A stretch of DNA of 64,000 bases from Ferruginibacter sp. (GTDB taxonomy: Bacteria > Bacteroidota > Bacteroidia > Chitinophagales > Chitinophagaceae). The translations under genes and the position numbers were made by a program. Shown here piece after piece: positions 12,001-27,930 of the stretch. The DNA lies in NCBI GenBank assembly GCA_037045295.1, contig JBAOHS010000008.1, forward strand, positions 401,171 to 465,170. The letters run 5' to 3'. How positions within the stretch are numbered: the first letter of the stretch is position 1; the number at the start of each line of letters is the position of its first letter. The notes beneath the pieces are model-generated. The model worked only from the letters and a program-made list of their open reading frames with translations, was not told the origin of the DNA and searched no databases.

Positions 12001-15000
12001 TTAAGGTATAAATACCGGCAAAACAGTTGTTTTTCCATCTGCCGAAGTAATGCTCATTTTATAATTGCCTGATGGGAACTGGTTACCCAAAGACAATGTT
12101 TTGATTTCTGCTGCTGAATTAATTTTAACCTGAGCCTGCTGTACCAGTTGTGCACTGGTATTGTAAATTTTTACAGTGTAGGTTCCTGCAGCCTGGTTGG
12201 TGAAATGAATGCGTGCAATCCTGTCGGCAACCGGATTCGGATATACTGTAATCGTTCCTGGCGTTTTAACCGGTTCAACTTTTACAATATTGCTGAACTG
12301 AATATATCCGTTTGCACTGATCGCTTTAATTCTGTAGAAATTGTTTCCGGTGAATGGATGCTGATCGATTTGCTGGTAATCGGTATTTCCACCATTATTG
12401 AGTTTTGGCAACACATCAGCAATTGATGTAAACTGACGACCATTGTCACTTCTTTCGATGCTGTATTTTTCAATACCAATTTCATTGTCTGCTTTCCAGT
12501 TTACAGCAATCGTAGCATCACTGTTACGGCTAGCCGAAAGTTTAGTGATGATCACCGGAACAGTTCTCAGTGCTTTGAAAACAACATAGAATCTATCAGC
12601 AGCAGCAGAAGCTGCATCGGTAGTAACAGTGAAATCCACAGAAGTGATTCCGTTCAATGCAACCGGTGTGGTGGTATTGAGGAACTTATCTACCAATTTG
12701 GCTTCAAGACCTGCATTGGCCATATTCTCAGGATTGAACCTGAACTGGTAAGTTTGTCTGCGTAGATTATTCATCCTGTAATAAACAGTATCGCTGCTGT
12801 TCACCATTTTCCTGGTTTCGAGCGCATAATTGTTGCCCGATTTTACCACGCCGATGTTTTCACCTGTATTCATGATTTTCAGGGCGTCGTTGGCATCGTG
12901 ATCATTTGAAAAATCATCATCCAATGCTACCACGTTTCCATCAGACAAAGGTGCATCGTTTGCATTTCCGGCATGTAAAGCAAGGCGGAAGTATTGCCTG
13001 TTGGCCAAACCTGAAGCATTGTTTGCATTTCCACGGAATACCATGTTATGTGCATTTACTTTACTTGCTTCAGTGAATGTTACGGTTCCTCCTGCATTGG
13101 TTGAGTAAACAAAGAAGGCTTGTCCGGATTGTATTAACTGATAAGGAGTGTTGGCATCATAATTTGCCGTACCACCCGGAATGGGTTTCCAGCCATTGGC
13201 CTGACTGATGGTTTGATACCCTCCCAGCCCGTTGTAATTCGCAGTAAGCAATGGATCCCAAACATAATATTTCTCATCAACTCCTCCGGTTTTTCCAACC
13301 AGGCTGAAATCAATGGCTGATGCATACGGATTACCGACTGCTTCAAATTTATCGGGCATTACAGTAGTTGGCGGTGGTGCATCAACAGTTAGGGTTGAAG
13401 GAATATACAATTTACCCCTTGCCCTGAGTATGGTTGCATTCGCAGGCTGATTGAAAGCAGTTATGCTTCTGTCGCCCCGAACGAATATCATGTATCCTTT
13501 CTGGTTAGTAATGGGTAAAGATGTTGTGCTGCTGATTCCATCCCAGCCATGTGTAACATGATTATATGTTTTCATCGATGGGCCAGGTGCAGTGAATACA
13601 TCAAAACCCAATGCCGGTGTAGTGGCGCCAGCCAGGTTGCTGGTAATCTGTGTACCAAAACCTGGTACCGGATTCGCATTCGGCGTTGCTGCTCCTTCCT
13701 GCCATGCCTCTTTCACAGTTTGTGTGGTATTCAACGGAACAGAAAGGAATTGCCATGATTTAGCATGTTCGCCCGGATTCACACCGGTAGCAATGAATCT
13801 TTCTACAACAAATCTTCCGGTGCCATAAGTGATGGCGTCGTTGGTATTGATTTTATCAACATTCGCTGTATGAGCCATACCCGACTTCAACGTAATATCT
13901 CCTGTTGCGAGATTCAACTTACCCGCAGTTAAAAGCGATAATTGTTTATCAATGGCGAGGTTTCCATTTACATTTACTCCCACCGTATTATCTACATTAA
14001 AATTGTAAAACTGTATACTGGTACCTGTAGAATTATATTGTTGTGCTACAGTTCCATTCAATAATAATGTACCATTGTTATGACTGAAAGCACTGTTGCT
14101 GTTACTGAAGTTACCCTTCACCGTTAGTGTTCCGGCCGGTGCTGTTTTAACCGATGTACCAGAAAGTGTTAACCCTTCGTAATCTATCAGGTTGGTAATG
14201 GTTTGAGCAACGGTTCCGGCAGGACCTCCATAATACTCAACAGTGGAGTTTGGTTCGAGAACTATAGACGGACTATTTGTATTTTCAATAGAAGTCACCA
14301 ATGAACCGGTAAAACCTGCTGCGTTACCGATTTTAAACACACCGCCATTCTTTACTGTAAAGGTTCCGCCTGATTGCATCTTAACGCCTGTTGCAACTGT
14401 TGGGTTGGCAACATTACTTCCGGAGACATTCAGGTTATAATAAGTTGGCAGATCGAGCCTGATGTCTTCGGTTGTACCTGCAACATTATTTGTAAAATCA
14501 ACCGTTGTACCTGTACCTAATGAATATGTACCTAAGGCATCGGGTTTAATACCGGTACCGGCTGTACGATAAACAGAAGTTCCTGTCATGGTAAGATTGG
14601 TACCTGCACCACCGAATACATAATTCTGTGCATCCACGATGGCCGCATCTTTAATCTGTATTGTTCCTGTTACAGATGGAGTGGCATTATTCAGTGTTTT
14701 AGTACCACTGGTTGAGAAGGTAAGATTCCTGTAATTTCTTCCACCACGTAATAACTGATTACCTGAACCATACAATTCAATTGTACCTCCTGTTATGTTA
14801 TAAGTCGCGATATCAAATTCAGGTAAAATAGTATTCAAACGGGCAAGTTTCAAAAGTCCTGCTGAAATATTAAACGGACTGGTATTGCTGTGCAGTCTGA
14901 ACGTTCCGGCATCATGAGTGCCTGCAGACAGTGTGTAGGCTGAAGAACCTGCACCCTGCACAAATACATCCGACAATTGGGTTAATGTACTGGCGGCTGT

Positions 15001-18000
15001 TTTTCTCAGCTGGTAGAATGTTTCTCCACCAGTTGTATTGATCGTTTGTGTTGTAGTACCATTGAAGTCTACAATACTGTTTTGTTCATTAAAACCTGAT
15101 TGGTTGTAATTCGTCCAGTTTCTTCCCAATGAAATGGTTCTGGTACCACCAATAAATATTGCAGCACCGGTAATGGTAATATCATTTACTACGGTAATAT
15201 TACCAGTTGGATTCTTATTATCTGCATTACTCAAAAGAAGATTTCCATAAACTGGTATATGATGAACTGTTTGACCAATCGGGGCATTGTATTCTACCGT
15301 ACTGGTTGCATTAAAATTATAAGTACTGTAGTTTGCAGGGAAATTACTGGTTCCCACACCGCCATTGTTTCTTCCTATTTTTAAAGTAGAGCCAGCCGCA
15401 AGATTGATACTGCCACCTGCGCTGTTCCTGTTGATCAGTTGTTGAGCGATGTCCAAAGTTGCATTGGTATTTACATTCAGGTTACCAAAATTTCTGAAAC
15501 CACCTGAACCTGATCCCGCCAATACAACTACCGGTGCATTTGTTTCACCAACTTCAGTTGAAGTAGCAGAGAGATAAATAACCTGGCTTCCTGAATTCTG
15601 CGTTACTGTTTGTGTTCCTGTACCATCAAAAATTACCTGTGCCGGTTTGTTGGAAGCATCATTTCCGATACCACCAAGGTTGGCATTTCCCTGCAGATAA
15701 AATTTGCCGGTATTATTGGTTGATGCATACAATGGCATCACCTGGTTGGTAGACGCTGTACCCACCGTAGTTAAATTACCTCCGTAGCGTACAACACCAC
15801 CAGTAGCCACACTGATTTGTGTGATTGAATTGGCAATGGGTATACCGCCACAGTTTGTTGTTAAAGATGTATTATTTAAGATATTTAATGTTCTTGTTCC
15901 CACATTCAACCGGAAGGTTGTTGGTGTGAAATTAAAGAACTGATCTCCTGTTAAATTAGTTGTAAGTGATTTAATGGTTACGTTGTTATTAAAATCAATC
16001 ACTGAATTGGTACCAAAAATGAAAGATGAAAAATCCACATTCATCACAACATCGTTACAATCTGAAGGCACACCTTTAGGCAACCAGTTTTGTGGATTAT
16101 TAAAATTATCATCTCCTGTACCGCCGGTAACACCATCACCATTCCAGGTTTTGGTAACTGCACCTTGTGTGATGGTCATTGCTGAAGCTGCAGAGTTACA
16201 ACCATTGGCGTCAGTAACTGTGAGGCTGTAATTGGCCGGATAAGCAACAGGTGTAGCAGTAGGATTGGCTGCAGATGCAGAACTCAATCCGGTTGCAGGT
16301 GACCATGTATAAGTATATGGACCTGTACCGTTTGATGCTGCCGGCGTTCCACCAATTACAGTTGATGTAACTGAAGTACAGAGTACCTGGTTTCCACCGC
16401 TATTGGCAACCGGTAATGGGTTTACAGTAACGGAAACAGCTGTGGTTGAAAAACAACTTCCTGCTGTTGCGGTTATAGTGAAGTTCGTTGTTTGTTGAGT
16501 ACCGGTATTATTGGTAAGCGTACCTGCAATTGTACTACCCGTTCCATTGTTGGCGATGCCGGTTAAATTTCCGGTATTATTTCTCGACCAGCTGAAATTG
16601 GTACCGGGTACACTATTCGGATTGGTAATAGTAATAGTACCGATTGCTGATCCTGAACATCTTGTTTGTGTTGATGGAGTAGCATTTACTGTTGGTCTTG
16701 GGTTAACCGTAACCGTTACAGTAAAGGTTATAGTACATGGCGGTGTTGAACCATACACAGGAGTAACTGTGTAAGTAGCTGTTTGTGCTGTAGCTGTATT
16801 ATTGGTAAGTGTTCCGGAAATACTGTTGCCTGATCCAGCTGCACCACCGGTCATGCCACCGGTAACTACAGGTGCCGACCAGCTATAACTTGTTCCTGAT
16901 GGGAAACCCGATGGCGTTACCGTAAATGCTGTACCACTACATCCGGTTGTACTGGTAGAGCCTATCGAGCTGGTAGGGTTTACCGTTAGTGTAACTACAT
17001 CACTGGTAACTGTACAACCACCAGACTGCATAATCACTCTGAACTGATGTGTTCCAATAATAGAACTGAATGATGCAACAGGATATTCAGTTGCATTCGC
17101 CGGTAATCCTGCACTAGTCCATGGACCAGCATTGGTAGAATACTGCCAGTTAAAAGTAGCTCCGCCTGGAACTGTATAGTTATAAAGATCAATATCATGT
17201 TCTCCACCTGGGCCTATTTCGCCACAAGTGATAATGGTTTCACTGTTATCATCAGCCACTTGATTAAAACTGATATTCGGAGCCGTAGGAGGATTAGAAA
17301 AAACAATATTTACGGTTGACTGTGAAGTACAGGTTCCGTTGGTGATTGTCCAGCGCAACTGGTATGTTCCTGCACCACCAGCACGGGTAAACGTAGCTGT
17401 AGGGTTAGTTGTACTGCTGAATTGTGCCAAGGAGGTATTCGGTCCTGAAACTACAGACCATGCGCCGGTTCCTACAACGGGAGTATTCGCTGCCAAAACA
17501 ACATTGTTAGCTGGCATACAAACGCTCTGATTGCTTCCAGCAACTGATGTTGTTGGTACCTGGGTTACAGTCACTGCTTTTGTTCTTACAGCACTTGTTC
17601 CACATGAATTACCTGCAGTTACGGTTATATTACCGTTATCACCAGCGGCGCCGGCTGTAACTGTAATGGCAACGGTACCCTGTCCTGCGGTAATTGTCCA
17701 TCCTGCAGGAACAGTCCAGGTATAAACGGTAGCATTGGGTACTGCTGTTATGCTATATGCGTTACCGGTAGTGTTTGAACAGGCAGCATTGGCGCCTGTT
17801 ATGGTACCAGGTGTGGCCGGTACCGGAGGATTCATTGTAACTGTAAGACTTCTGATAGAAGCATAGTTAACAGTGAGCACCGGTGCATTGGCCGCTGAAG
17901 AATAACCAAAGAAATTATACGTTGCAGTTCCTCCTCTTACCAATCCCATTCCGATCCAACCCGGAGCTGCAATCCTTCCCTGGATATCTGTATTGGCCGT

Positions 18001-20310
18001 TGCATTCAGGTTCAGGGATATCTGACCTGTATTAGCCCATGTACCAGAATTATAATTTGCACCGCTTCCGCAGGCAGTGTATAATGTATTAGCGGCAGTA
18101 CTAACAGGATCATTTCCTCCCAGTGCGTTAACCGTATTGGTTGCACCCGAAGCAGAACTACCGTTATTGGTTAAACGAAGTATAGAAGATGTGATGGTTG
18201 ATCCTGTTGGAATTCCACTTAACGGGAATTTAAGGTATCCCCTTCTTTCTGCTCCACCACCTTGCACTGAAATATTATCGGTTGTTTTCGGACCGTTATT
18301 ATCTGTCCAACCTGTATTGTTGGTAGCTGCTACCGGTTTAATATTGATTACCTGAGCCACATCACTGCTTCCGCAGGAGTTTACAGCAGCCACTGTGAAG
18401 TTACCGCCAGCAGCACCTGTAGTGACTGTGATTGAATTGGTGCCCGACCCTGAAGTGATAGACCATCCGGCAGGAATCGTCCAGTTATAACTGGTGGCGT
18501 TCGCAACAGGTGTAACACTATAAACTTGTCCGGTTGTGTTCGGACAAGCCGGTGATGGTCCAGAAATTACACCCGGTGTGGCAGGTGCTGCAGGGTTAAC
18601 CACCACTGCTTTGATCTGAGCTGTACTTGTACCGCAGCCATTGCCAGCAGTTACAGTGATATCGCCATTCTGACCAAATGAACCGGCTGTAACTGTTATA
18701 GAAGTTGTTCCTGCACCAGCGGTAATTGACCAACCGGTTGGAACAGTCCATGTATAGGTTGTTGCATTGGCAACAGGAGCAATCGTAAAAGATAAACCAG
18801 TAGTTCCGGCACAAGCCCCGGCTACTCCGCTGATCACTCCCGGTGTTACAGGAATTGCAGGGTTAAGGGAAATTGCTCTTGTTTGAGTACCGCTGTTACC
18901 ACATGAATTTGCTGCATTCACAGTTATGTTACCAGCAACTGTTCCTGAAGTAACGGTGATGGATGTAGTACCTGCGCCTGCAGTGATCGTCCAGCCGCCT
19001 GGTACAGTCCAGTTGTAAGTTGTTGCATTGGCAACCGGAGCGATGGTATATACCAATCCTCCCGTTGAAGGACACACAGGTGAGCTACCCGAAATTGATC
19101 CCGGTGTAGCGGGTGCCGGTGGGTTCACATCCTGTGAAAGAACAGATGAAGTAGAAGTCGTATAATCAGCATCTCCTGAATATACGGCTGTTAAACTATG
19201 TGATCCTGTTGAAAGAGTTGAAGTACTGAATGTTGCTGAACCAGCAGTAATTGTTGCTGTTCCTAATAAAGTAACCCCATCAAAAAACTGTACTGTTCCG
19301 GTAGCGACAGCAGGGTTAACCGTTGCCGTTAGTGTTATTGAAGAAGAGAAACAAGATGGGTTGATATCTGAAATAAGTGATGTTGTAGTAGAAGCCTGAC
19401 TTACTGTAAAATCGTTTGTTACAGAGAAAGTCAATCCCGATGCATTGGCCATCAGTTTCTTTACACCAGCGGCATTGATCTGCAGATCAGTGTAGGCAAT
19501 GGTTCCGTTACCGGCAGCCGTTCCAATATCGAGGATTGTTGTCCCTGATAAAATACCTGTACCGGCAGAAAGTGTAATGGTAACATTTTTGCTGGCACCC
19601 AGTCCATTGGTACTCGGATTACCAAACTGGTCTTCTGTTATCACTATTGGTTGCTGAGCAAAAATATTTCCAACAACAGCTCCCGATGGTTCAGTGGTAA
19701 ACACCAGAACGGCGGCATCTCCCGGCTGTTGTGATAAGCTTCCAAAATCAGTTCCTGAAGATCCATCTGTATTGCTGGTAGTTATAATGCCGGTAATGGT
19801 AGCTGTTCCCGGGTTTGCAGTTGCAACATACAATTGTCCTGATGAAGGGATGGCAGCACCATCTGTGGCCTGAACTTCTATACCTGAAATGGTAATTACA
19901 TCCAGGGATGATATAGCAGTAACGTCTATGGTTAGGGTAATTTCTGTTGAGCTAACGGCAAGGGATACACTACTAACATCTGCTCCTGTAGCTGCAACAG
20001 CACCAGAAGCTGTATTAAAAGTCCAGCCTGCGGGTGCAGTTATAATAAGTGTTTTAGCAGTTCCGCCGGTATTGACAAAATCATCAGCAGCAGACTCGCT
20101 TATGATGATATCACCCAATGGCGAAAAAACAGGAGCACTTGCATTGGCAGCTTTATCGGCAGATATCAAAGTACCGCCGGTTGCAGGAGTTACAATAACA
20201 TCAGCTTTCAGGCTGAATGAAAGCAACAACAGCAGGCTGATGATTCCCGTTAGCCTCACTTTATTAGCGAAAGCTTTAGATGCAGTTGAATTTTGTAAAC
20301 GTGTTTTCAT
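12001..20310 (-). CDS. 2769-aa T9SS-secreted adhesin-like protein with Ig-like group 3, four PKD-like repeats, a DNRLRE-like domain, SprB-like and beta-helix-like regions, a shared C-terminal module and a CTD
   Basis: Intact ORF with a signal peptide (...LLLLLSFSLKA-DV), a C-terminal TVYPNPV...GNYKMSI...VFIP sorting domain and recognisable repeats. Confidence 0.92.
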   Translation of the reverse strand: MKTRLQNSTASKAFANKVRLTGIISLLLLLSFSLKADVIVTPATGGTLISADKAANASAPVFSPLGDIIISESAADDFVNTGGTAKTLIITAPAGWTFNTASGAVAATGADVSSVSLAVSSTEITLTIDVTAISSLDVITISGIEVQATDGAAIPSSGQLYVATANPGTATITGIITTSNTDGSSGTDFGSLSQQPGDAAVLVFTTEPSGAVVGNIFAQQPIVITEDQFGNPSTNGLGASKNVTITLSAGTGILSGTTILDIGTAAGNGTIAYTDLQINAAGVKKLMANASGLTFSVTNDFTVSQASTTTSLISDINPSCFSSSITLTATVNPAVATGTVQFFDGVTLLGTATITAGSATFSTSTLSTGSHSLTAVYSGDADYTTSTSSVLSQDVNPPAPATPGSISGSSPVCPSTGGLVYTIAPVANATTYNWTVPGGWTITAGAGTTSITVTSGTVAGNITVNAANSCGNSGTQTRAISLNPAIPVTPGVISGVAGACAGTTGLSFTIAPVANATTYTWTVPTGWSITAGAGTTSITVTAGSFGQNGDITVTAGNGCGTSTAQIKAVVVNPAAPATPGVISGPSPACPNTTGQVYSVTPVANATSYNWTIPAGWSITSGSGTNSITVTTGAAGGNFTVAAVNSCGSSDVAQVINIKPVAATNNTGWTDNNGPKTTDNISVQGGGAERRGYLKFPLSGIPTGSTITSSILRLTNNGSSASGATNTVNALGGNDPVSTAANTLYTACGSGANYNSGTWANTGQISLNLNATANTDIQGRIAAPGWIGMGLVRGGTATYNFFGYSSAANAPVLTVNYASIRSLTVTMNPPVPATPGTITGANAACSNTTGNAYSITAVPNATVYTWTVPAGWTITAGQGTVAITVTAGAAGDNGNITVTAGNSCGTSAVRTKAVTVTQVPTTSVAGSNQSVCMPANNVVLAANTPVVGTGAWSVVSGPNTSLAQFSSTTNPTATFTRAGGAGTYQLRWTITNGTCTSQSTVNIVFSNPPTAPNISFNQVADDNSETIITCGEIGPGGEHDIDLYNYTVPGGATFNWQYSTNAGPWTSAGLPANATEYPVASFSSIIGTHQFRVIMQSGGCTVTSDVVTLTVNPTSSIGSTSTTGCSGTAFTVTPSGFPSGTSYSWSAPVVTGGMTGGAAGSGNSISGTLTNNTATAQTATYTVTPVYGSTPPCTITFTVTVTVNPRPTVNATPSTQTRCSGSAIGTITITNPNSVPGTNFSWSRNNTGNLTGIANNGTGSTIAGTLTNNTGTQQTTNFTITATAGSCFSTTAVSVTVNPLPVANSGGNQVLCTSVTSTVIGGTPAASNGTGPYTYTWSPATGLSSASAANPTATPVAYPANYSLTVTDANGCNSAASAMTITQGAVTKTWNGDGVTGGTGDDNFNNPQNWLPKGVPSDCNDVVMNVDFSSFIFGTNSVIDFNNNVTIKSLTTNLTGDQFFNFTPTTFRLNVGTRTLNILNNTSLTTNCGGIPIANSITQISVATGGVVRYGGNLTTVGTASTNQVMPLYASTNNTGKFYLQGNANLGGIGNDASNKPAQVIFDGTGTQTVTQNSGSQVIYLSATSTEVGETNAPVVVLAGSGSGGFRNFGNLNVNTNATLDIAQQLINRNSAGGSINLAAGSTLKIGRNNGGVGTSNFPANYSTYNFNATSTVEYNAPIGQTVHHIPVYGNLLLSNADNKNPTGNITVVNDITITGAAIFIGGTRTISLGRNWTNYNQSGFNEQNSIVDFNGTTTQTINTTGGETFYQLRKTAASTLTQLSDVFVQGAGSSAYTLSAGTHDAGTFRLHSNTSPFNISAGLLKLARLNTILPEFDIATYNITGGTIELYGSGNQLLRGGRNYRNLTFSTSGTKTLNNATPSVTGTIQIKDAAIVDAQNYVFGGAGTNLTMTGTSVYRTAGTGIKPDALGTYSLGTGTTVDFTNNVAGTTEDIRLDLPTYYNLNVSGSNVANPTVATGVKMQSGGTFTVKNGGVFKIGNAAGFTGSLVTSIENTNSPSIVLEPNSTVEYYGGPAGTVAQTITNLIDYEGLTLSGTSVKTAPAGTLTVKGNFSNSNSAFSHNNGTLLLNGTVAQQYNSTGTSIQFYNFNVDNTVGVNVNGNLAIDKQLSLLTAGKLNLATGDITLKSGMAHTANVDKINTNDAITYGTGRFVVERFIATGVNPGEHAKSWQFLSVPLNTTQTVKEAWQEGAATPNANPVPGFGTQITSNLAGATTPALGFDVFTAPGPSMKTYNHVTHGWDGISSTTSLPITNQKGYMIFVRGDRSITAFNQPANATILRARGKLYIPSTLTVDAPPPTTVMPDKFEAVGNPYASAIDFSLVGKTGGVDEKYYVWDPLLTANYNGLGGYQTISQANGWKPIPGGTANYDANTPYQLIQSGQAFFVYSTNAGGTVTFTEASKVNAHNMVFRGNANNASGLANRQYFRLALHAGNANDAPLSDGNVVALDDDFSNDHDANDALKIMNTGENIGVVKSGNNYALETRKMVNSSDTVYYRMNNLRRQTYQFRFNPENMANAGLEAKLVDKFLNTTTPVALNGITSVDFTVTTDAASAAADRFYVVFKALRTVPVIITKLSASRNSDATIAVNWKADNEIGIEKYSIERSDNGRQFTSIADVLPKLNNGGNTDYQQIDQHPFTGNNFYRIKAISANGYIQFSNIVKVEPVKTPGTITVYPNPVADRIARIHFTNQAAGTYTVKIYNTSAQLVQQAQVKINSAAEIKTLSLGNQFPSGNYKMSITSADGKTTVLPVFIP
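17565..19125 (-). repeat. Four intragenic PKD-like repeats of about 85 aa (TPG.I.G...C......Y.I..V.NAT.Y.WTVP.GW.IT.G.GT..ITVT)
   Basis: Three consecutive copies at about 18345-19125 and a fourth at about 17565-17830, after the DNRLRE-like insert. Confidence 0.85.
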
Positions 20311-20796: not shown

Positions 20797-21903
20797 TTAT
20801 AAAACATTGATTGTTTTTACAGTGATGGTGTTAGCCGGACTGATTATTTTAAGTCGGTATACACCTGGCGCAACAGTTTTTGGCAGATTAATAACCTGTA
20901 CTGACTGGCCTGAACCTGCCTGTATTGACGATAATGGGATCATATTACCATTTACCGTATATAACATCAGGCTATACTTACCTTCTGTTCCTGCAGGTAA
21001 AATCAGGTTGAGTTTTCTGTCGGCTACCGGGTTAGGATAAACGATCATCTCACTTACAGGAGCGGCGATACTTACTTTCTGGATTGAAGAATAAATCACT
21101 TTACCTTCCAGCGTAGTCGCTTTTATTCGGTAATAATTATCGGCCTTTCTTGAAACAAGATCCGTTGCATTATATGTTTTACTTCCTCCGGCATTTTCAG
21201 GCGCTACAATTTGTATTGAACTGAAATGATTGCGGTCTGTAGAATGTTCGATATTGTAATCAACTATTTCTGATTCGTGTTCAACGACCCATTGCAGATG
21301 AATGGCTGCACCGGAGATTTCTACATTAAATACTCCGATTGTAGGCGTTGGGATCAGTGCCCTGTTTCTGAAAACTACACGAAAGCGATCGAGTGCATAA
21401 GATGCAGCATCGCTGGTTACATTAAAATCATACGTATTATCACCATTCAGAAACAATGCGGTTTTTGATCCGGTAAAAGCATCTTCGAGGAAACCTAACA
21501 GTCCCGGGTGCTCGAGGTTTTTCGTACTAACGATTAACCTGTATTGCCTTTGCAGCATATTCCACATGCAGAAGAATGCGGTATCTTTTACATTTACTTT
21601 TTTACGTTGTTCAATTGCCAAACGGGTGCCTGCACGGAGGATACCGAAATTCTCCCCAAAATTGTTCATTTTAATAGCATCGTCGCCGAGACCATTGGTG
21701 AACATATCATCGTAATTGGTGAGGTTTCCGTCGACCATCCTGGTGGTGCCATTGGCTTCCAGGTGATATAAATTGGCGGAGAGAGATTCTTCAAGACCCT
21801 GCTGGCTTGTATTCTGAGCGCCGGATTGATGTGCAGTGATCAGTAGTAATACAGCTGAGATCAATGTTTTCCCACGCTTTTGCAGTGTAGTTAGCTTTTT
21901 CAC
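20797..21903 (-). CDS. 368-aa T9SS cargo protein made of a signal peptide, the shared C-terminal module, an Ig-like domain and a CTD
   Basis: GTG start; DDAIKMNNFGENFGI...LAIEQR...DAASYALDRFRVVF aligns with the two giant neighbours; ends in VYPNPV...PGVYRLKI...INVL. Confidence 0.88.
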   Translation of the reverse strand: MKKLTTLQKRGKTLISAVLLLITAHQSGAQNTSQQGLEESLSANLYHLEANGTTRMVDGNLTNYDDMFTNGLGDDAIKMNNFGENFGILRAGTRLAIEQRKKVNVKDTAFFCMWNMLQRQYRLIVSTKNLEHPGLLGFLEDAFTGSKTALFLNGDNTYDFNVTSDAASYALDRFRVVFRNRALIPTPTIGVFNVEISGAAIHLQWVVEHESEIVDYNIEHSTDRNHFSSIQIVAPENAGGSKTYNATDLVSRKADNYYRIKATTLEGKVIYSSIQKVSIAAPVSEMIVYPNPVADRKLNLILPAGTEGKYSLMLYTVNGNMIPLSSIQAGSGQSVQVINLPKTVAPGVYRLKIISPANTITVKTINVL

Positions 21904-22115
21904 GTTTAGTTTTTTCAGATTAGGATTTGGATACTACCCTAAAACGCAGGACGAAAATTTCTATTGTGTTCGGGACTAAATACAGGCAAAAAAAAGTTCA
22001 TATGACTTAACTTTTAGTCAATTGAAGAAAAACGCCATACACTTATATATATACTAGTACTTCAGTCTGCCTTCTTAGTGTTTCAGAAAAAATAGCCGTA
22101 TTTTTTTTATTTTTT

Positions 22116-22147
22116 TTTGTTTGAGTAAAAACGCCCCCTTATCTTTG
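22116..22147 (+). promoter_or_regulatory. Bacteroidetes housekeeping promoter for tRNA-Val
   Basis: TTTG at 22116-22119, a 20-nt spacer, then TATCTTTG at 22140-22147. Confidence 0.75.
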
Positions 22148-22165
22148 CCGTCCTTAAAACAGGAA

Positions 22166-22240
22166 GGGAGTTTAGCTCAGTTGGTTTAGAGCATCTGCCT
22201 TACAAGCAGAGGGTCGGCGGTTCGACCCCGTCAACTCCCA
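22166..22240 (+). tRNA. tRNA-Val (anticodon TAC), CCA not encoded
   Basis: GGGAGTT/AACTCCC acceptor stem with discriminator A, GCTC/GAGC D-stem, TCTGC-CTTACAA-GCAGA anticodon arm, GGCGG-TTCGACC-CCGTC T-arm. Confidence 0.97.
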
Positions 22241-23047
22241 CAGAGCCTCACAATTTGTTGTGAGGCTTATTTATTTTTCCACGAATAAAAGATTTTAGCG
22301 CTGTTCTGTTTTGAGCATCCCGATTTACAATCGGGAGGGTCGGCGGTTTCCCGATGATTCGGGATCAACTCCCACAGAGCCTCACAATTTGTTGTGAGGC
22401 TTATTTATTTTTCCACGAATAAAAGATTTTAGCGCTGTTCGGTCTAGAGCATCCCGATTTACAATCGGGAGGGTCGGCGGTTTCCCGAAGATTCGGGATC
22501 AACTCCCACAGAGCCTCACAATTTGTTGGGAGGCTTATTTATTTTTTCCACGTATAAATGATTTTAGCGCTGTTAGGTTTGGAGCATCCCGATTTACAAT
22601 CGGGAGGGTCGGCGGTTTCCCGATGATTCAGGATCAACTCCCACAGAGCCTCACAATTTGTTGTGAGGCTTATTTATTTTTTCCACGTATAAAAGATTTT
22701 AGCGCTGTTCGGTTTAGAGCATCCCGATTTACAATCGGGAGGGTCGGCGGTTTCCCGATGATTCGGGATCAACTCCCACAGAGCCTCACAATTTGTTGTG
22801 AGGCTTATTTATTTTTTCCACGTATAAAAGATTTTAGCGCTGTTCGGTTTAGAGCATCCCGATTTACAATCGGGAGGGTCGGCGGTTTCCCGATGATTCG
22901 GGATCAACTCCCACAGAGCCTCACAATTTGTTGTGAGGCTTATTTATTTTTCCACGTATAAAAGATTTTAGCGCTGTTCGGTTTGGATCATCCCGATTTA
23001 CAATCGGGAGACTCGGCGGTTTCACGATGATTCGGGATCAACTCCCA
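22241..23047 (+). repeat. Six tandem 134-135 bp tRNA-Val-derived repeats, each a terminator hairpin plus a remodelled pseudo-tRNA
   Basis: Units start at 22241, 22375, 22509, 22644, 22779 and 22914. Units 4 and 5 are identical; the others differ from them by 4-6 changes. Every unit ends in the tRNA 3' sequence TCAACTCCCA. Confidence 0.97.
22244..22278 (+). terminator. Terminator-like hairpin after tRNA-Val, repeated at the start of every array unit
   Basis: AGCCTCACAA-TTTG-TTGTGAGGCT perfect 10-bp stem followed by TATTTATTTTT. Confidence 0.8.
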
Positions 23048-23168
23048 CAAACCCCGCATTTCAGTGTAAGGTTTTACTTTTTATATCATAGCTGCCTGCC
23101 CCGTATTTCTGTTATATAGCATTCCAACATTGATATTCCTGAAAAATGCTACTTTTGTACTTTGATAT

Positions 23169-23471
23169 ATGTCAGCATTTCCATCATACAACACTTCTAC
23201 AAAGCAGGATATAGAAACAGATGTTCTTACCCTTACGGAACCACCCTGTAGTTTACTCGTTTGGAACGACGATGTAAATACATTTGAGTGGGTAATAGAA
23301 ACCCTGATAGAAATCTGCGGCCATTCACAGGAACAGGCAGAGCAGTGTGCCTTCCTGATTCATAGCAAAGGCAAATACGCTGTTAAAAATGGCAGCTACG
23401 ACGTTCTGAAGCCTCAATGCGATGCGATAACCGATAGAAAAATCGGTGCCACCATTGAAATCCTCGCCTGA
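23169..23471 (+). CDS. clpS: ATP-dependent Clp protease adaptor ClpS
   Basis: LLVWNDDVNTFEWVIETL...HSKGKYAV motif; TACTTTTG promoter at 23150-23157. Confidence 0.92.
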   Translation: MSAFPSYNTSTKQDIETDVLTLTEPPCSLLVWNDDVNTFEWVIETLIEICGHSQEQAEQCAFLIHSKGKYAVKNGSYDVLKPQCDAITDRKIGATIEILA

Positions 23472-26580: not shown

Positions 26581-27930
26581 TTATGCGTTGCTGAAGGTTA
26601 ATTTTTTTTCAGGGTAACTGGCTGCAAAAGAATAAAGACTATTGCGGATAAAATCATTGTCGGCATAAGGATGAATCTTCTCTTTCAAAATATAAGCAGA
26701 ATCTATTTTTTCATCTGCCGGAAGATATCCCATGCCCCAGAAACTACCTTTTTCAATGAGCAGGTACAATCGTTCTGTTGGTTCTTTGCCTTCATCTACA
26801 ATGGCAAAAGTGGGCAATTGTTTTTCCAGTTCCTGCAAAGCCTGGTTCACTTTTTTGTTGTAGCGTACCGGTGAATCTAGGTGTTCAAAGTCTTTCTCGG
26901 TAATGGCGGTTTTATCTATAAAACAAAGTTTGTGATTCAGTTCGAATTGTTCAATGATTTTCCTGAGCATAACCAATCCTTCATGTAAAAGATTGAATCG
27001 GTACAATGCCGGAAAGTGTTTCTTCCGTTTGTCAATCGCCAGTCGCATGTATCCCCTGTTGTCTTCAAAACAATACAATCCATATTGCTGTACAGGTTGC
27101 TTCTGACTATAATTGTATTTCGGCCAGAGCCGCCTGATTTCGGTACTTTCCAGCACCAGTGCATGCAATTCACTGGCACAAACGGTATGACTGATGTTTG
27201 CAACCAGCCTTAGAAAATGCTGGCGTTTTTTCTCACCATCATTGTGTGTAAAATGACTGCTTACCCTTTTCCTGATATTAATGGCTTTGCCTACATAGAT
27301 GATTTTGCCTTTGCTGTTGTGGAAATAATAAACACCGGGCGCTGCGGGCAACTGATCAATCACTGATTTATCGAGTTGCATCGGCAACCACTGATCAGCT
27401 GATGTTTTCTTCAGCATTTTATTAATATGCTCCAATGCTCCGCCTGCCAGTAACTTATCAAACAACACAACCGTAGCTGCTGCATCACCTTTGGCTCTAT
27501 GCCTGTTTTCAATACTTATATTCAGGTTGCGACAGAGGTTACCCAAACTATAAGAAGGCAATCCCGGAAATACTTTTCGGCTAAGCCTTACCGTGCATAA
27601 TTTTTTTTCATTCAGATCGAACCCGGATTGTTTCAGGTGATGCTTCAGAAAAGAAAAATCGAAATTCACATTGTGTGCTATAAAAACTTTTCCCTGTAAT
27701 ATGTTGTAGACCCTTTCTGCAATGTCAGAAAATACAGGAGCGCCTGCCACCATACTTCCCGAAATACCGGTGAGTGCAGTGATGTACAATGGTATATTTC
27801 TTTCGGGATTGATCAGTGTATGAAAAGTTTCCACCACCTGCACACCATCATGCACAAAAATGGCCAGTTCTGTAATGCCATTGCCTACAGCATGACCTCC
27901 GGTGGTTTCTATATCAACAATTGCATACAT
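26581..27930 (-). CDS. DEDDh (DnaQ-like) exonuclease fused to a GIY-YIG (UvrC/Cho-like) nuclease domain
   Basis: AIVDIETTG, AHNVNFD and HRAKGDA exonuclease motifs; PGVYYFH...IIYVGKAINIRKRVSSHF. Confidence 0.9.
   Translation of the reverse strand: MYAIVDIETTGGHAVGNGITELAIFVHDGVQVVETFHTLINPERNIPLYITALTGISGSMVAGAPVFSDIAERVYNILQGKVFIAHNVNFDFSFLKHHLKQSGFDLNEKKLCTVRLSRKVFPGLPSYSLGNLCRNLNISIENRHRAKGDAAATVVLFDKLLAGGALEHINKMLKKTSADQWLPMQLDKSVIDQLPAAPGVYYFHNSKGKIIYVGKAINIRKRVSSHFTHNDGEKKRQHFLRLVANISHTVCASELHALVLESTEIRRLWPKYNYSQKQPVQQYGLYCFEDNRGYMRLAIDKRKKHFPALYRFNLLHEGLVMLRKIIEQFELNHKLCFIDKTAITEKDFEHLDSPVRYNKKVNQALQELEKQLPTFAIVDEGKEPTERLYLLIEKGSFWGMGYLPADEKIDSAYILKEKIHPYADNDFIRNSLYSFAASYPEKKLTFSNA

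Follow-up and report, generated by a model that had tools for sequence, protein, structure and literature searches.

The single-domain GIY-YIG enzyme SsnA of Neisseria meningitidis is paired with a hairpin repeat, NTS (CGTCATTCCCGCGMAVGCGGGAATCYRG), which it binds as single-stranded DNA only and in one orientation only, cutting just 5′ of the hairpin irrespective of loop identity and leaving duplex DNA and RNA uncut; Y6A, Y17A, and E64A are catalytic mutants of the enzyme, a hairpin lies beside the gene in 71% of homologues, and the authors likened this layout to an insertion sequence (Chenal et al. 2025, PMC11893778). The word tRNA is absent from the Ssn paper (PMC11893778). SegB of phages T4 and T6 is a free-standing GIY-YIG homing endonuclease that resides in a tRNA gene cluster and cuts tRNA gene DNA, upon which recombination at short homologies leads to tandem amplification of a tRNA-containing segment (PMC2330249, PMC13096335). 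Here, we describe a tandem array of tRNA-like units that follows the tRNA-Val(UAC) gene in a 64,000-nt stretch of a Ferruginibacter sp. genome (GCA_037045295.1, contig JBAOHS010000008.1, positions 401,171–465,170; the whole stretch is hereafter referred to as the window). Each unit contains a truncated copy of the tRNA in which two arms have been replaced by TCCCGA…TCGGGA hairpins. The array is probably a form, lacking the open reading frame (ORF), of a cassette that combines a small GIY-YIG nuclease gene with such hairpins next to a tRNA gene. As far as our searches show, this architecture, which resembles the Ssn/hairpin module, has not been described in the literature; no description of tRNA-embedded GIY-YIG/hairpin cassettes was found, including in PMC1564403, a 2026 genome-language-model preprint, and a tRNA-fragment preprint.

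The tRNA-Val(UAC) gene at 22166–22241 is the sole gene for that anticodon in the genome (genome tRNA list). It is followed by six head-to-tail units of 134–135 bp (22243–23049; starts at 22243, 22377, 22511, 22646, 22781, and 22916), which were detected by the tandem-repeat program TRF as a repeat at 22231–23049 with a period of 135, 6.1 copies, and 96% matches. The features of the locus are as follows.

22120..22147, + strand: putative promoter of tRNA-Val, TTTG and then TATCTTTG at 22140–22147, as read from the sequence
22166..22241, + strand: intact tRNA-Val(UAC) (ARAGORN; Rfam RF00005, 70.1 bits)
22231..22242, + strand: tRNA 3′ end TCAACTCCCACA (12 nt), the direct repeat that ends every unit
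22243..22376, + strand: unit 1 (134 bp), comprising the terminator (22243–22268), the spacer, and the truncated tRNA copy with two hairpins
22318..22336, + strand: hairpin 1 of unit 1, TCCCGA-TTTACAA-TCGGGA, which replaces the anticodon stem and is the same in all six units
22349..22364, + strand: hairpin 2 of unit 1, TCCCGA-TGAT-TCGGGA, which replaces the T loop and 3′ T stem
22377..22510, + strand: unit 2 (134 bp)
22511..22645, + strand: unit 3 (135 bp), with a T>G change in the terminator, which was missed by the terminator scan
22646..22780, + strand: unit 4 (135 bp)
22781..22915, + strand: unit 5 (135 bp), identical to unit 4
22916..23049, + strand: unit 6 (134 bp), the most diverged (GGATCA, GACTC, TCACGA)
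23050..23084, + strand: AACCCCGCATTTCAGTGTAAGGTTTTACTTTTTAT, a weak hairpin and T tract after unit 6, read by eye
23169..23471, + strand: clpS, the downstream neighbour (Pfam ClpS, 65 bits)

All units share the same order, namely the tRNA terminator, an A/T-rich spacer of ~27 nt, and a 5′-truncated tRNA-Val copy. The terminator (GAGCCTCACAATTTGTTGTGAGGCTT and a T tract) is found after tRNA-Val itself and at the head of each unit, and further copies of TCAACTCCCACA start at 22365, 22499, 22634, 22769, 22904, and 23038. The element that follows unit 6 is probably a decayed copy of the same terminator, as judged by eye from the homology. The Bacteroidota sigma-A consensus is TTTG/TAnnTTTG, which the putative tRNA-Val promoter fits, and a TAnnTTTG box is also present upstream of tRNA-Val in relatives. 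No ORF was found inside any of the six units. Pairwise identity among the units is 94–100%, indicating that their amplification or homogenization was recent.

The tRNA-Val gene reads …GAGCA-TCTGC-CTTACAA-GCAGA-GGGTC-GGCGG-TTCGACC-CCGTC-AACTCCCAC, and the copy in unit 1 reads …GAGCA-TCCCGA-TTTACAA-TCGGGA-GGGTC-GGCGG-TT-TCCCGA-TGAT-TCGGGA-TCAACTCCCACA. The copies lack the first five bases of the tRNA (the 5′ acceptor strand, GGGAG), and their D-arm region is mutated. In place of the anticodon stem TCTGC/GCAGA, TCCCGA/TCGGGA encloses TTTACAA; the variable loop and 5′ T stem (GGGTCGGCGG) are unchanged, the T loop and 3′ T stem (TCGACCCCG) have become the second hairpin, and the last 12 nt (TCAACTCCCACA) are again unchanged. 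In units 2–6, hairpin 1 is located at 22452–22470, 22587–22605, 22722–22740, 22857–22875, and 22991–23009, and hairpin 2 at 22483–22498 (loop T>A), 22618–22633 (stem G>A), 22753–22768, 22888–22903, and 23022–23037 (stem C>A); two of these T-arm hairpins thus contain uncompensated stem mismatches. Both hairpins lie where the preliminary description of this stretch had placed them, although the span noted there covers only one of the six units and one pair of the twelve hairpins. The TTACAA loop, which was described as retained, is partly accounted for by the palindrome running through TT/AA. Upon folding as single-stranded DNA, both hairpins form, and hairpin 1 reaches 8 bp (TCCCGATT-TAC-AATCGGGA) with the anticodon triplet as its loop.

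In the window, TCCCGA-N(3-10)-TCGGGA occurs 10 times (0.00 expected from 100 dinucleotide shuffles), and in the 3.75-Mb genome it occurs at 18 sites (0 for the reversed-pattern control), in agreement with the earlier view that a stem repeated in this way is not the result of drift. The tandem array is no assembly artefact. Metagenome assemblies are built from short reads and break at the repeat, leaving depth ratios as the usable measure of the array; in exact contigs from four metagenomes of different studies, the word depth of the unit was 38–82 and that of the flanks was 8–15, a ratio of 4–7, with exact unit contigs of 131–164 nt.

Two simple origins of the palindromes were considered and rejected. 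Palindromic repair scars (P-nucleotide-like) would derive from local flanks, but the palindrome is a fixed sequence that does not; core sites of a tyrosine recombinase were discarded on the ground that the real and copied arms have different loops. A function of the units as a second tRNA was also set aside: the acceptor stem is broken, ARAGORN called one tRNA in the window, the real tRNA-Val, and none of the copies, and an Rfam search of 21800–23300 (E ≤ 1) yielded the tRNA match at 22166–22240 alone, plus chance RefA1 matches, with no family for the units. The units might instead act at the RNA level as tRNA-like transcripts (decoys, sponges, or processing elements), with the stems kept for RNA structure or for an RNA-binding protein. 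The stable fold (folding z-score of the unit, −3.8), the good intrinsic terminator that comes with each unit, the strong tRNA promoter upstream, and the presence of exact array fragments in libraries labelled RNA-Seq are consistent with this. However, there is no promoter-like box inside the units, and a terminator precedes each of them; in four putative RNA runs, the array fragments are exact but very shallow, with a depth like that of neighbouring genes, and DNA carry-over is possible. In addition, the broken acceptor stem and the lack of an Rfam family match argue against such a role, as does the finding, described below, that it is the stem sequence (TCCCG/CGGGA) that is conserved across phyla at differing places in the scaffold, not an RNA shape. 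SsnA, for its part, does not bind RNA (PMC11893778). An RNA-level function is accordingly given only a small chance.

The hairpins are not confined to tRNA-Val. Searches with TRF and a blast of the 37 tRNAs against the genome identified partial tRNA copies with hairpins at 11 of the 37 tRNA genes: Val-TAC, Ser-GGA, Ser-GCT, two Met, Arg-CCG, Arg-CCT (five units), Phe, Leu-CAG, Leu-CAA, and Glu. Among the 18 TCCCGA sites, 14 are in two tRNA-linked pseudo-tRNA arrays, 2 in ordinary terminators, 1 in the rplU leader, and 1 in a coding region. The second TCCCGA array (C5:568588–569099; C denotes contigs of this genome) consists of four 119–120-bp pseudo-tRNA-Ser units upstream of tRNA-Ser(GGA), with TCCCGA-TCGAA-TCGGGA in place of the D arm and TCCCGC-TGAATT-GCGGGA in place of the 5′ side of the anticodon arm. 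Three hairpin types were distinguished in the genome: TCCCGA/TCGGGA (with the variant TCCCGC/GCGGGA), TCCGCC/GGCGGA, and CCTGCCCGAC…CAGGCGGG. The last family has 16 copies, all in the tRNA sense and all in T loops of partial tRNA copies, mostly as clean insertions that separate GGTTC from GA(A/T)TC; those remaining are directly next to a further hairpin inserted in that loop, and two or three are sometimes stacked in one T loop. Its sites, which are outside the window, are as follows.

C5:908557, C5:1330962, C5:1053564–1054089, C6:331381–331459, C8:323359–323563, C10:396352, and 396697: CCTGCCCGAC…CAGGCGGG hairpins, all in the tRNA sense

Each of the three hairpin classes has a small GIY-YIG gene at one of its loci. 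At tRNA-Glu, a 345-bp repeat unit encodes an 82-aa GIY-YIG ORF with a CCTGCCCGAC…CAGGCGGG hairpin 14 nt past its stop codon, and similar small ORFs are found after tRNA-Ser(GGA) (89 aa) and the tRNA-Met array. A genome scan placed the small GIY-YIG genes at C5:569253–569522 (by tRNA-Ser), C10:168520–168765, and C10:396096–396683. The protein encoded at C5:569253 falls in the clade that is paired with TCCCGA stems in relatives. The preliminary description was thus right that the window holds no responsible enzyme, and candidate genes are located elsewhere in the genome. In the rplU (L21) leader, TCCCGA-AAAAA-TCGGGA (C5:109810–109826) directly follows a TAnnTTTG promoter box and may be a leader structure unrelated to the cassettes.

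One proposal in the preliminary description was a process of the type of the repetitive extragenic palindromic (REP) sequences and their associated tyrosine transposases (RAYTs), in which an HUH (Y1) transposase spreads a palindrome into single-stranded hairpin sites. REP/RAYT and IS200/IS605 systems resemble the present one in that short palindromes are read as single-stranded DNA and non-autonomous copies are served by an enzyme encoded elsewhere. Y1_Tnp-like genes (PF01797) are indeed present at C5:168628, C9:63867, C8:223528, and C4:48206, and the clean insertion of CCTGCCCGAC…CAGGCGGG at GGTTC^GA of T loops recalls the manner of an IS200/IS605 target. However, the Y1 genes are next to other repeats (a 55-bp array at C9:64388 and a 44-bp array at C8:223108), and none is within 50 kb of a TCCCGA hairpin; the TCCCGA sites number just 18 and lie nearly all in tRNA copies, not in hundreds of dispersed extragenic positions; and the hairpin of the T loops also occurs past the GIY-YIG stop codon at tRNA-Glu. 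The two systems also differ in chemistry, HUH enzymes forming a covalent intermediate and GIY-YIG enzymes being hydrolytic, and in the confinement of the hairpins described here to tRNA copies. We therefore consider a REP/RAYT-type origin very improbable. The Y1-transposase-like (RAYT-like) genes at C9:63867–64651 and C8:223108–223746 adjoin short tandem or palindromic repeats of their own (periods of 55 and 44 bp) and represent a separate system.

Complete cassettes were found in relatives (G, genome). In the Chitinophagaceae metagenome-assembled genome (MAG) G017, tRNA-Val(TAC) is followed by six 341-bp units, each consisting of a terminator, an 84-aa GIY-YIG ORF, and a pseudo-tRNA (GATCAGTTGGGTTAGTGCA-TCCCGATTTATAATCGGGA-GGGTC) with an intact T arm. 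The ATG of the ORF is immediately next to the T tract of the terminator, and its stop codon falls within the pseudo D loop; because no promoter is visible there, expression would need read-through from the tRNA promoter. G006 contains one ORF-less and one ORF-bearing unit, each with both hairpins as in the window units, and G011 contains three units upstream of the tRNA. A single ORF-less unit is present in G019 and G334 at the orthologous tRNA-Val locus, for which clpS serves as the marker, and the hairpins of the G334 unit are TCCCGA-CATCAG-TCGGGA and TCCCGAG-AC-CTCGGGA. In G010, G013, G021, and G024, by contrast, an identical tRNA-Val is followed by the terminator alone, so that filled and empty sites coexist beside an identical gene in congeners. 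ORF-less short-period arrays are common (G001, G006, G012, G017, G020, G326, G348, and G358). In other genomes, the TCCCGA anticodon arm is also found after tRNA-Lys, Thr, Gly, Arg, and Ala, and the triplet in the hairpin loop varies among relatives (TAT, TCT, CTT, and others), which fits a free loop. Across loci, hairpins occupy the D arm, the anticodon arm, the position after the anticodon loop, or the T loop of the tRNA scaffold.

Two side observations concern such copies. ARAGORN calls hairpin-converted tRNA-Lys copies tRNA-Asn(ATT) and tRNA-Arg(TCT) (G326:C75, locus 380–589, and G008:C229, locus 197–269); automatic tRNA gene sets can be inflated or distorted by units of this kind. The units that follow tRNA-Asn in G020:C183 (locus 361–600) contain two hairpin classes in one pseudo-tRNA, namely an anticodon-arm hairpin, TCCCGACA-TTGTA-TGTCGGGA, and a T-loop hairpin, TCCGCC-TC-GGCGGA.

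The distribution at tRNA genes also bears on the possibility that the units are footprints of integrase islands, i.e. partial tRNA copies (attL/attR) that remain after successive rounds of integration into and excision from the tRNA 3′ end. As in tRNA-integrated islands and prophages, the tRNA is left whole, and its 3′ part recurs as a direct repeat beyond the insert; such islands are usually recognized by partial tRNA copies, and the 12-nt repeat of the tRNA 3′ end bounds every unit. In contrast to those islands, no recombinase is present: the 135-bp units lack an integrase, and the 341–366-bp units of relatives encode the GIY-YIG ORF only. The inserts here are 135–366 bp in size and tandem, and carry a foreign hairpin; the copies include the D and anticodon regions, which are upstream of a plausible crossover, and the same hairpin is found at different tRNAs. 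Of all the explanations considered, this one is given the least credence.

The cassette proteins are stand-alone GIY-YIG domains of 81–100 aa (Pfam GIY-YIG, 44–55 bits), and an alignment of six of them showed Y6, Y17, R28, H32, and E64 to be invariant. Using a profile of these six proteins, small GIY-YIG ORFs were identified in 50 of 61 congeners, where they are often arrayed and number as many as 26 in one genome. Within the DNA fetched around each ORF, 67 of 85 distinct ORFs had a same-strand tRNA upstream, in 53 cases within 90 bp. When the choice of hairpin beside the ORFs was restricted to GC-rich non-terminator hairpins, the hairpin started a median of +7 nt from the stop codon (49 cassettes). 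On the protein tree, hairpin class changed 5 times (mean 15.8 and minimum 13 in 300 label shuffles) and tRNA identity 16 times (shuffled mean 50.4, minimum 46). Nuclease clade, hairpin class, and tRNA type are thus inherited together as one unit.

A stricter motif, CA-TCCCGA-N(3-9)-TCGGGA-GG, was found in 32 of 61 congeners, with 0 control matches. It is present in 31 of the 50 genomes with the ORF and in 1 of the 11 without it (Fisher p = 0.002; Spearman 0.50), by statistics that ignore phylogeny and MAG incompleteness; the small GIY-YIG gene, one of the candidates for co-occurrence named in the preliminary description, hence tracks the motif. In other families of the same order, the module was detected in 15 of 301 genomes, including an eight-unit 366-bp array. 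A single-protein search yielded nine loci, and the ORF adjoins a tRNA gene in 6 of the 8 relatives' loci that were scanned for tRNAs. In two Thermodesulfovibrionia MAGs (Nitrospirota), tRNA-Asn is followed by a GIY-YIG ORF and then by GGCTGTTAA-TCCCGAATGCTTTCGGGA-TCGGGGGTTCG, and Thermobacterium salinum has TCCCGC…GCGGGA copies at tRNA-Arg and tRNA-Pro. A fixed hairpin signature, as originally postulated, therefore marks many tRNA copies, both within this genome and among its relatives and further phyla, and with rewritten copies at 11 of 37 tRNA genes and the motif in 32 of 61 congeners, a one-off local rearrangement is not favoured. Active overwriting of hairpins in place, the process envisaged at that time, is not supported: all six units derive from a single unit that had already been converted, and different species have the same converted arm, which indicates that this arm was inherited or moved as a module. 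Among the options then listed, a nuclease or protein-binding stem fits best, given that the hairpin travels with the small GIY-YIG gene; the binding itself would follow by analogy.

The comparison with Ssn/NTS supports that analogy in several respects. The cassettes of relatives and of three other tRNA loci of this genome, though not the window units, share with Ssn/NTS a single-domain GIY-YIG protein of ~100 aa with catalytic Y6, Y17, and E64 at the same numbering, and a GC-rich hairpin directly beside the gene, as in the published NTS-ssnA-NTS layout; the hairpin repeat that flanks the gene in Ssn/SRM modules is 20–50 nt long. The core TCCCG(N)…(N)CGGGA resembles both NTS (TTCCCGCG-MAV-GCGGGAA) and dRS3 (ATTCCC-N8-GGGAAT), the loop is free, and there are many co-varying enzyme/hairpin pairs. 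In contrast to Ssn/NTS, the hairpins described here are inside truncated tRNA copies by a working tRNA and are often tandem, the orienting GTCWY flank is absent, and the genome contains 18 copies instead of hundreds. The cassette proteins plausibly belong to the Ssn clade (cd10448), a placement that rests on these likenesses; they had no NCBIfam match. SegB shares with the cassettes a GIY-YIG gene lodged among tRNA genes and tandem amplification there, and presence/absence polymorphism at a conserved target gene, a trait of Seg-type elements, was observed at tRNA-Val of congeners. SegB is, however, a multi-domain, sequence-reading, double-strand cutter of phages, whereas the present elements are chromosomal, encode the catalytic domain only, and combine it with a dedicated hairpin and a remodelled tRNA copy; the DNA-binding domain of Seg-type proteins (about 200 aa or more) is absent from the cassette ORFs of 81–100 aa.

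These comparisons suggest the following scheme. In the full cassette, as seen in relatives, a working tRNA is followed by a terminator, a gene for an 81–100-aa single-domain GIY-YIG protein, a 5′-truncated version of that tRNA with a GC-rich hairpin (TCCCGA…TCGGGA in this lineage) replacing or interrupting one or two of its arms, and the tRNA 3′ end. By analogy with Ssn/NTS pairs, the hairpin would be the cognate recognition site of the nuclease, and the cassette would bind and cleave in the manner of Ssn/SRM. The cut would fall while transcription or replication leaves the tRNA-sense strand single-stranded, and in a heavily transcribed gene, nuclease cuts at hairpins that are exposed on the non-template strand may provoke recombination. 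Repair of the break via the direct repeats (the tRNA 3′ end and the terminator) would expand or contract the array, and the window array may have been enlarged by recombination between the repeated tRNA 3′ ends. Flanked by the full tRNA and by a tRNA 3′ part, the cassette may possess portable homology arms that allow its entry into the same tRNA gene elsewhere, and this would account for the association of each protein clade with one tRNA type. Selection would preserve the one intact tRNA-Val. The window units would then be either non-autonomous elements served in trans by the small GIY-YIG genes of the genome or a recent relic.

If the units are no more than a dead relic, the array descends from a cassette, the hairpins are fossils, and the copies arose by unequal crossing-over between the 135-bp repeats. 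The units lack an ORF, two of the T-arm hairpins contain the uncompensated mismatches mentioned above, unit 6 is decaying, a single unit persists in G334, a genome in which no small GIY-YIG gene was detected, and the copy number is alike, ~4–7, in the four metagenomes, all of which speak for a relic. On the other hand, the 94–100% identity of the units points to recent amplification or homogenization, ORF-less short-period arrays recur in many congeners, and this genome encodes small GIY-YIG genes of the clade paired with TCCCGA stems. In our view, a dead relic is unlikely, though it deserves more credit than an RNA-level role.

Several points weigh against reading the array as an ORF-less cassette whose hairpins are nuclease sites. 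G334 is 99% complete and has perfect hairpins, and no small GIY-YIG gene was found in it, so that the hairpin can persist without the enzyme or has another role. The genome studied here contains no Val-clade GIY-YIG ORF, and there is no nuclease gene in the array. Physical linkage would by itself cause ORF and hairpin to be inherited together, and the cross-genome association is open to the influence of the phylogeny and MAG incompleteness that its statistics leave aside. Within the array, none of the 19 columns of hairpin 1 varies among the six units, but only ~2 would be expected to, given 14 variable columns in 135, and this invariance is not significant. The SRM pattern, HGTCWY-N(0-2)-YYVSBRH-N(0-5)-WNVSBRG-N(0-2)-RNCYNB, has 0 matches in the window and 3 in the genome; both window hairpins fail even the SRM core, which is fitted only by TCCCGC..GCGGGA of the tRNA-Ser array. 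The best sequence match of the cassette proteins to a solved structure, UPF0213 BH0048, is weak (E = 0.0067). Finally, GIY-YIG nucleases hydrolyse DNA and cannot join strands, so that every mobility step rests on host recombination and is conjecture.

Two other features of the window may be mentioned. A 449-aa protein encoded at 26581–27930 (− strand) combines an RNase_T (DEDD) exonuclease domain with GIY-YIG and DUF7508; this multi-domain protein differs from the small GIY-YIG proteins and is unlinked to the array. Upstream of the locus, a very long ORF (2769 aa) occupies 12001–20310 (− strand).

A wider interpretation, which we put forward tentatively and with the chances somewhat against it, is that small Ssn-like GIY-YIG nucleases and their cognate hairpins form an unrecognized class of selfish elements without transposase or integrase. 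Such elements would use the tRNA gene as promoter, cross-species landing pad, and homology arms and would spread by host recombination; arrays would arise via nicking of exposed hairpins, and ORF-less arrays would be members resembling miniature inverted-repeat transposable elements (MITEs), mobilized in trans.

For the window, the striking ‘rewritten tRNA’ now has a concrete and testable candidate cause. If the interpretation is true, it would account for common unannotated tRNA-like repeats and odd ARAGORN calls. Ssn single-strand nucleases would be placed in a natural genomic setting, with a selfish life cycle as a possibility, and many new enzyme/hairpin pairs would become available for single-stranded-DNA tools. 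The arrays would also be a chromosomal parallel to the SegB-driven amplification of phage tRNA loci, and tRNA genes in many phyla would host a minimal nuclease-plus-hairpin element.

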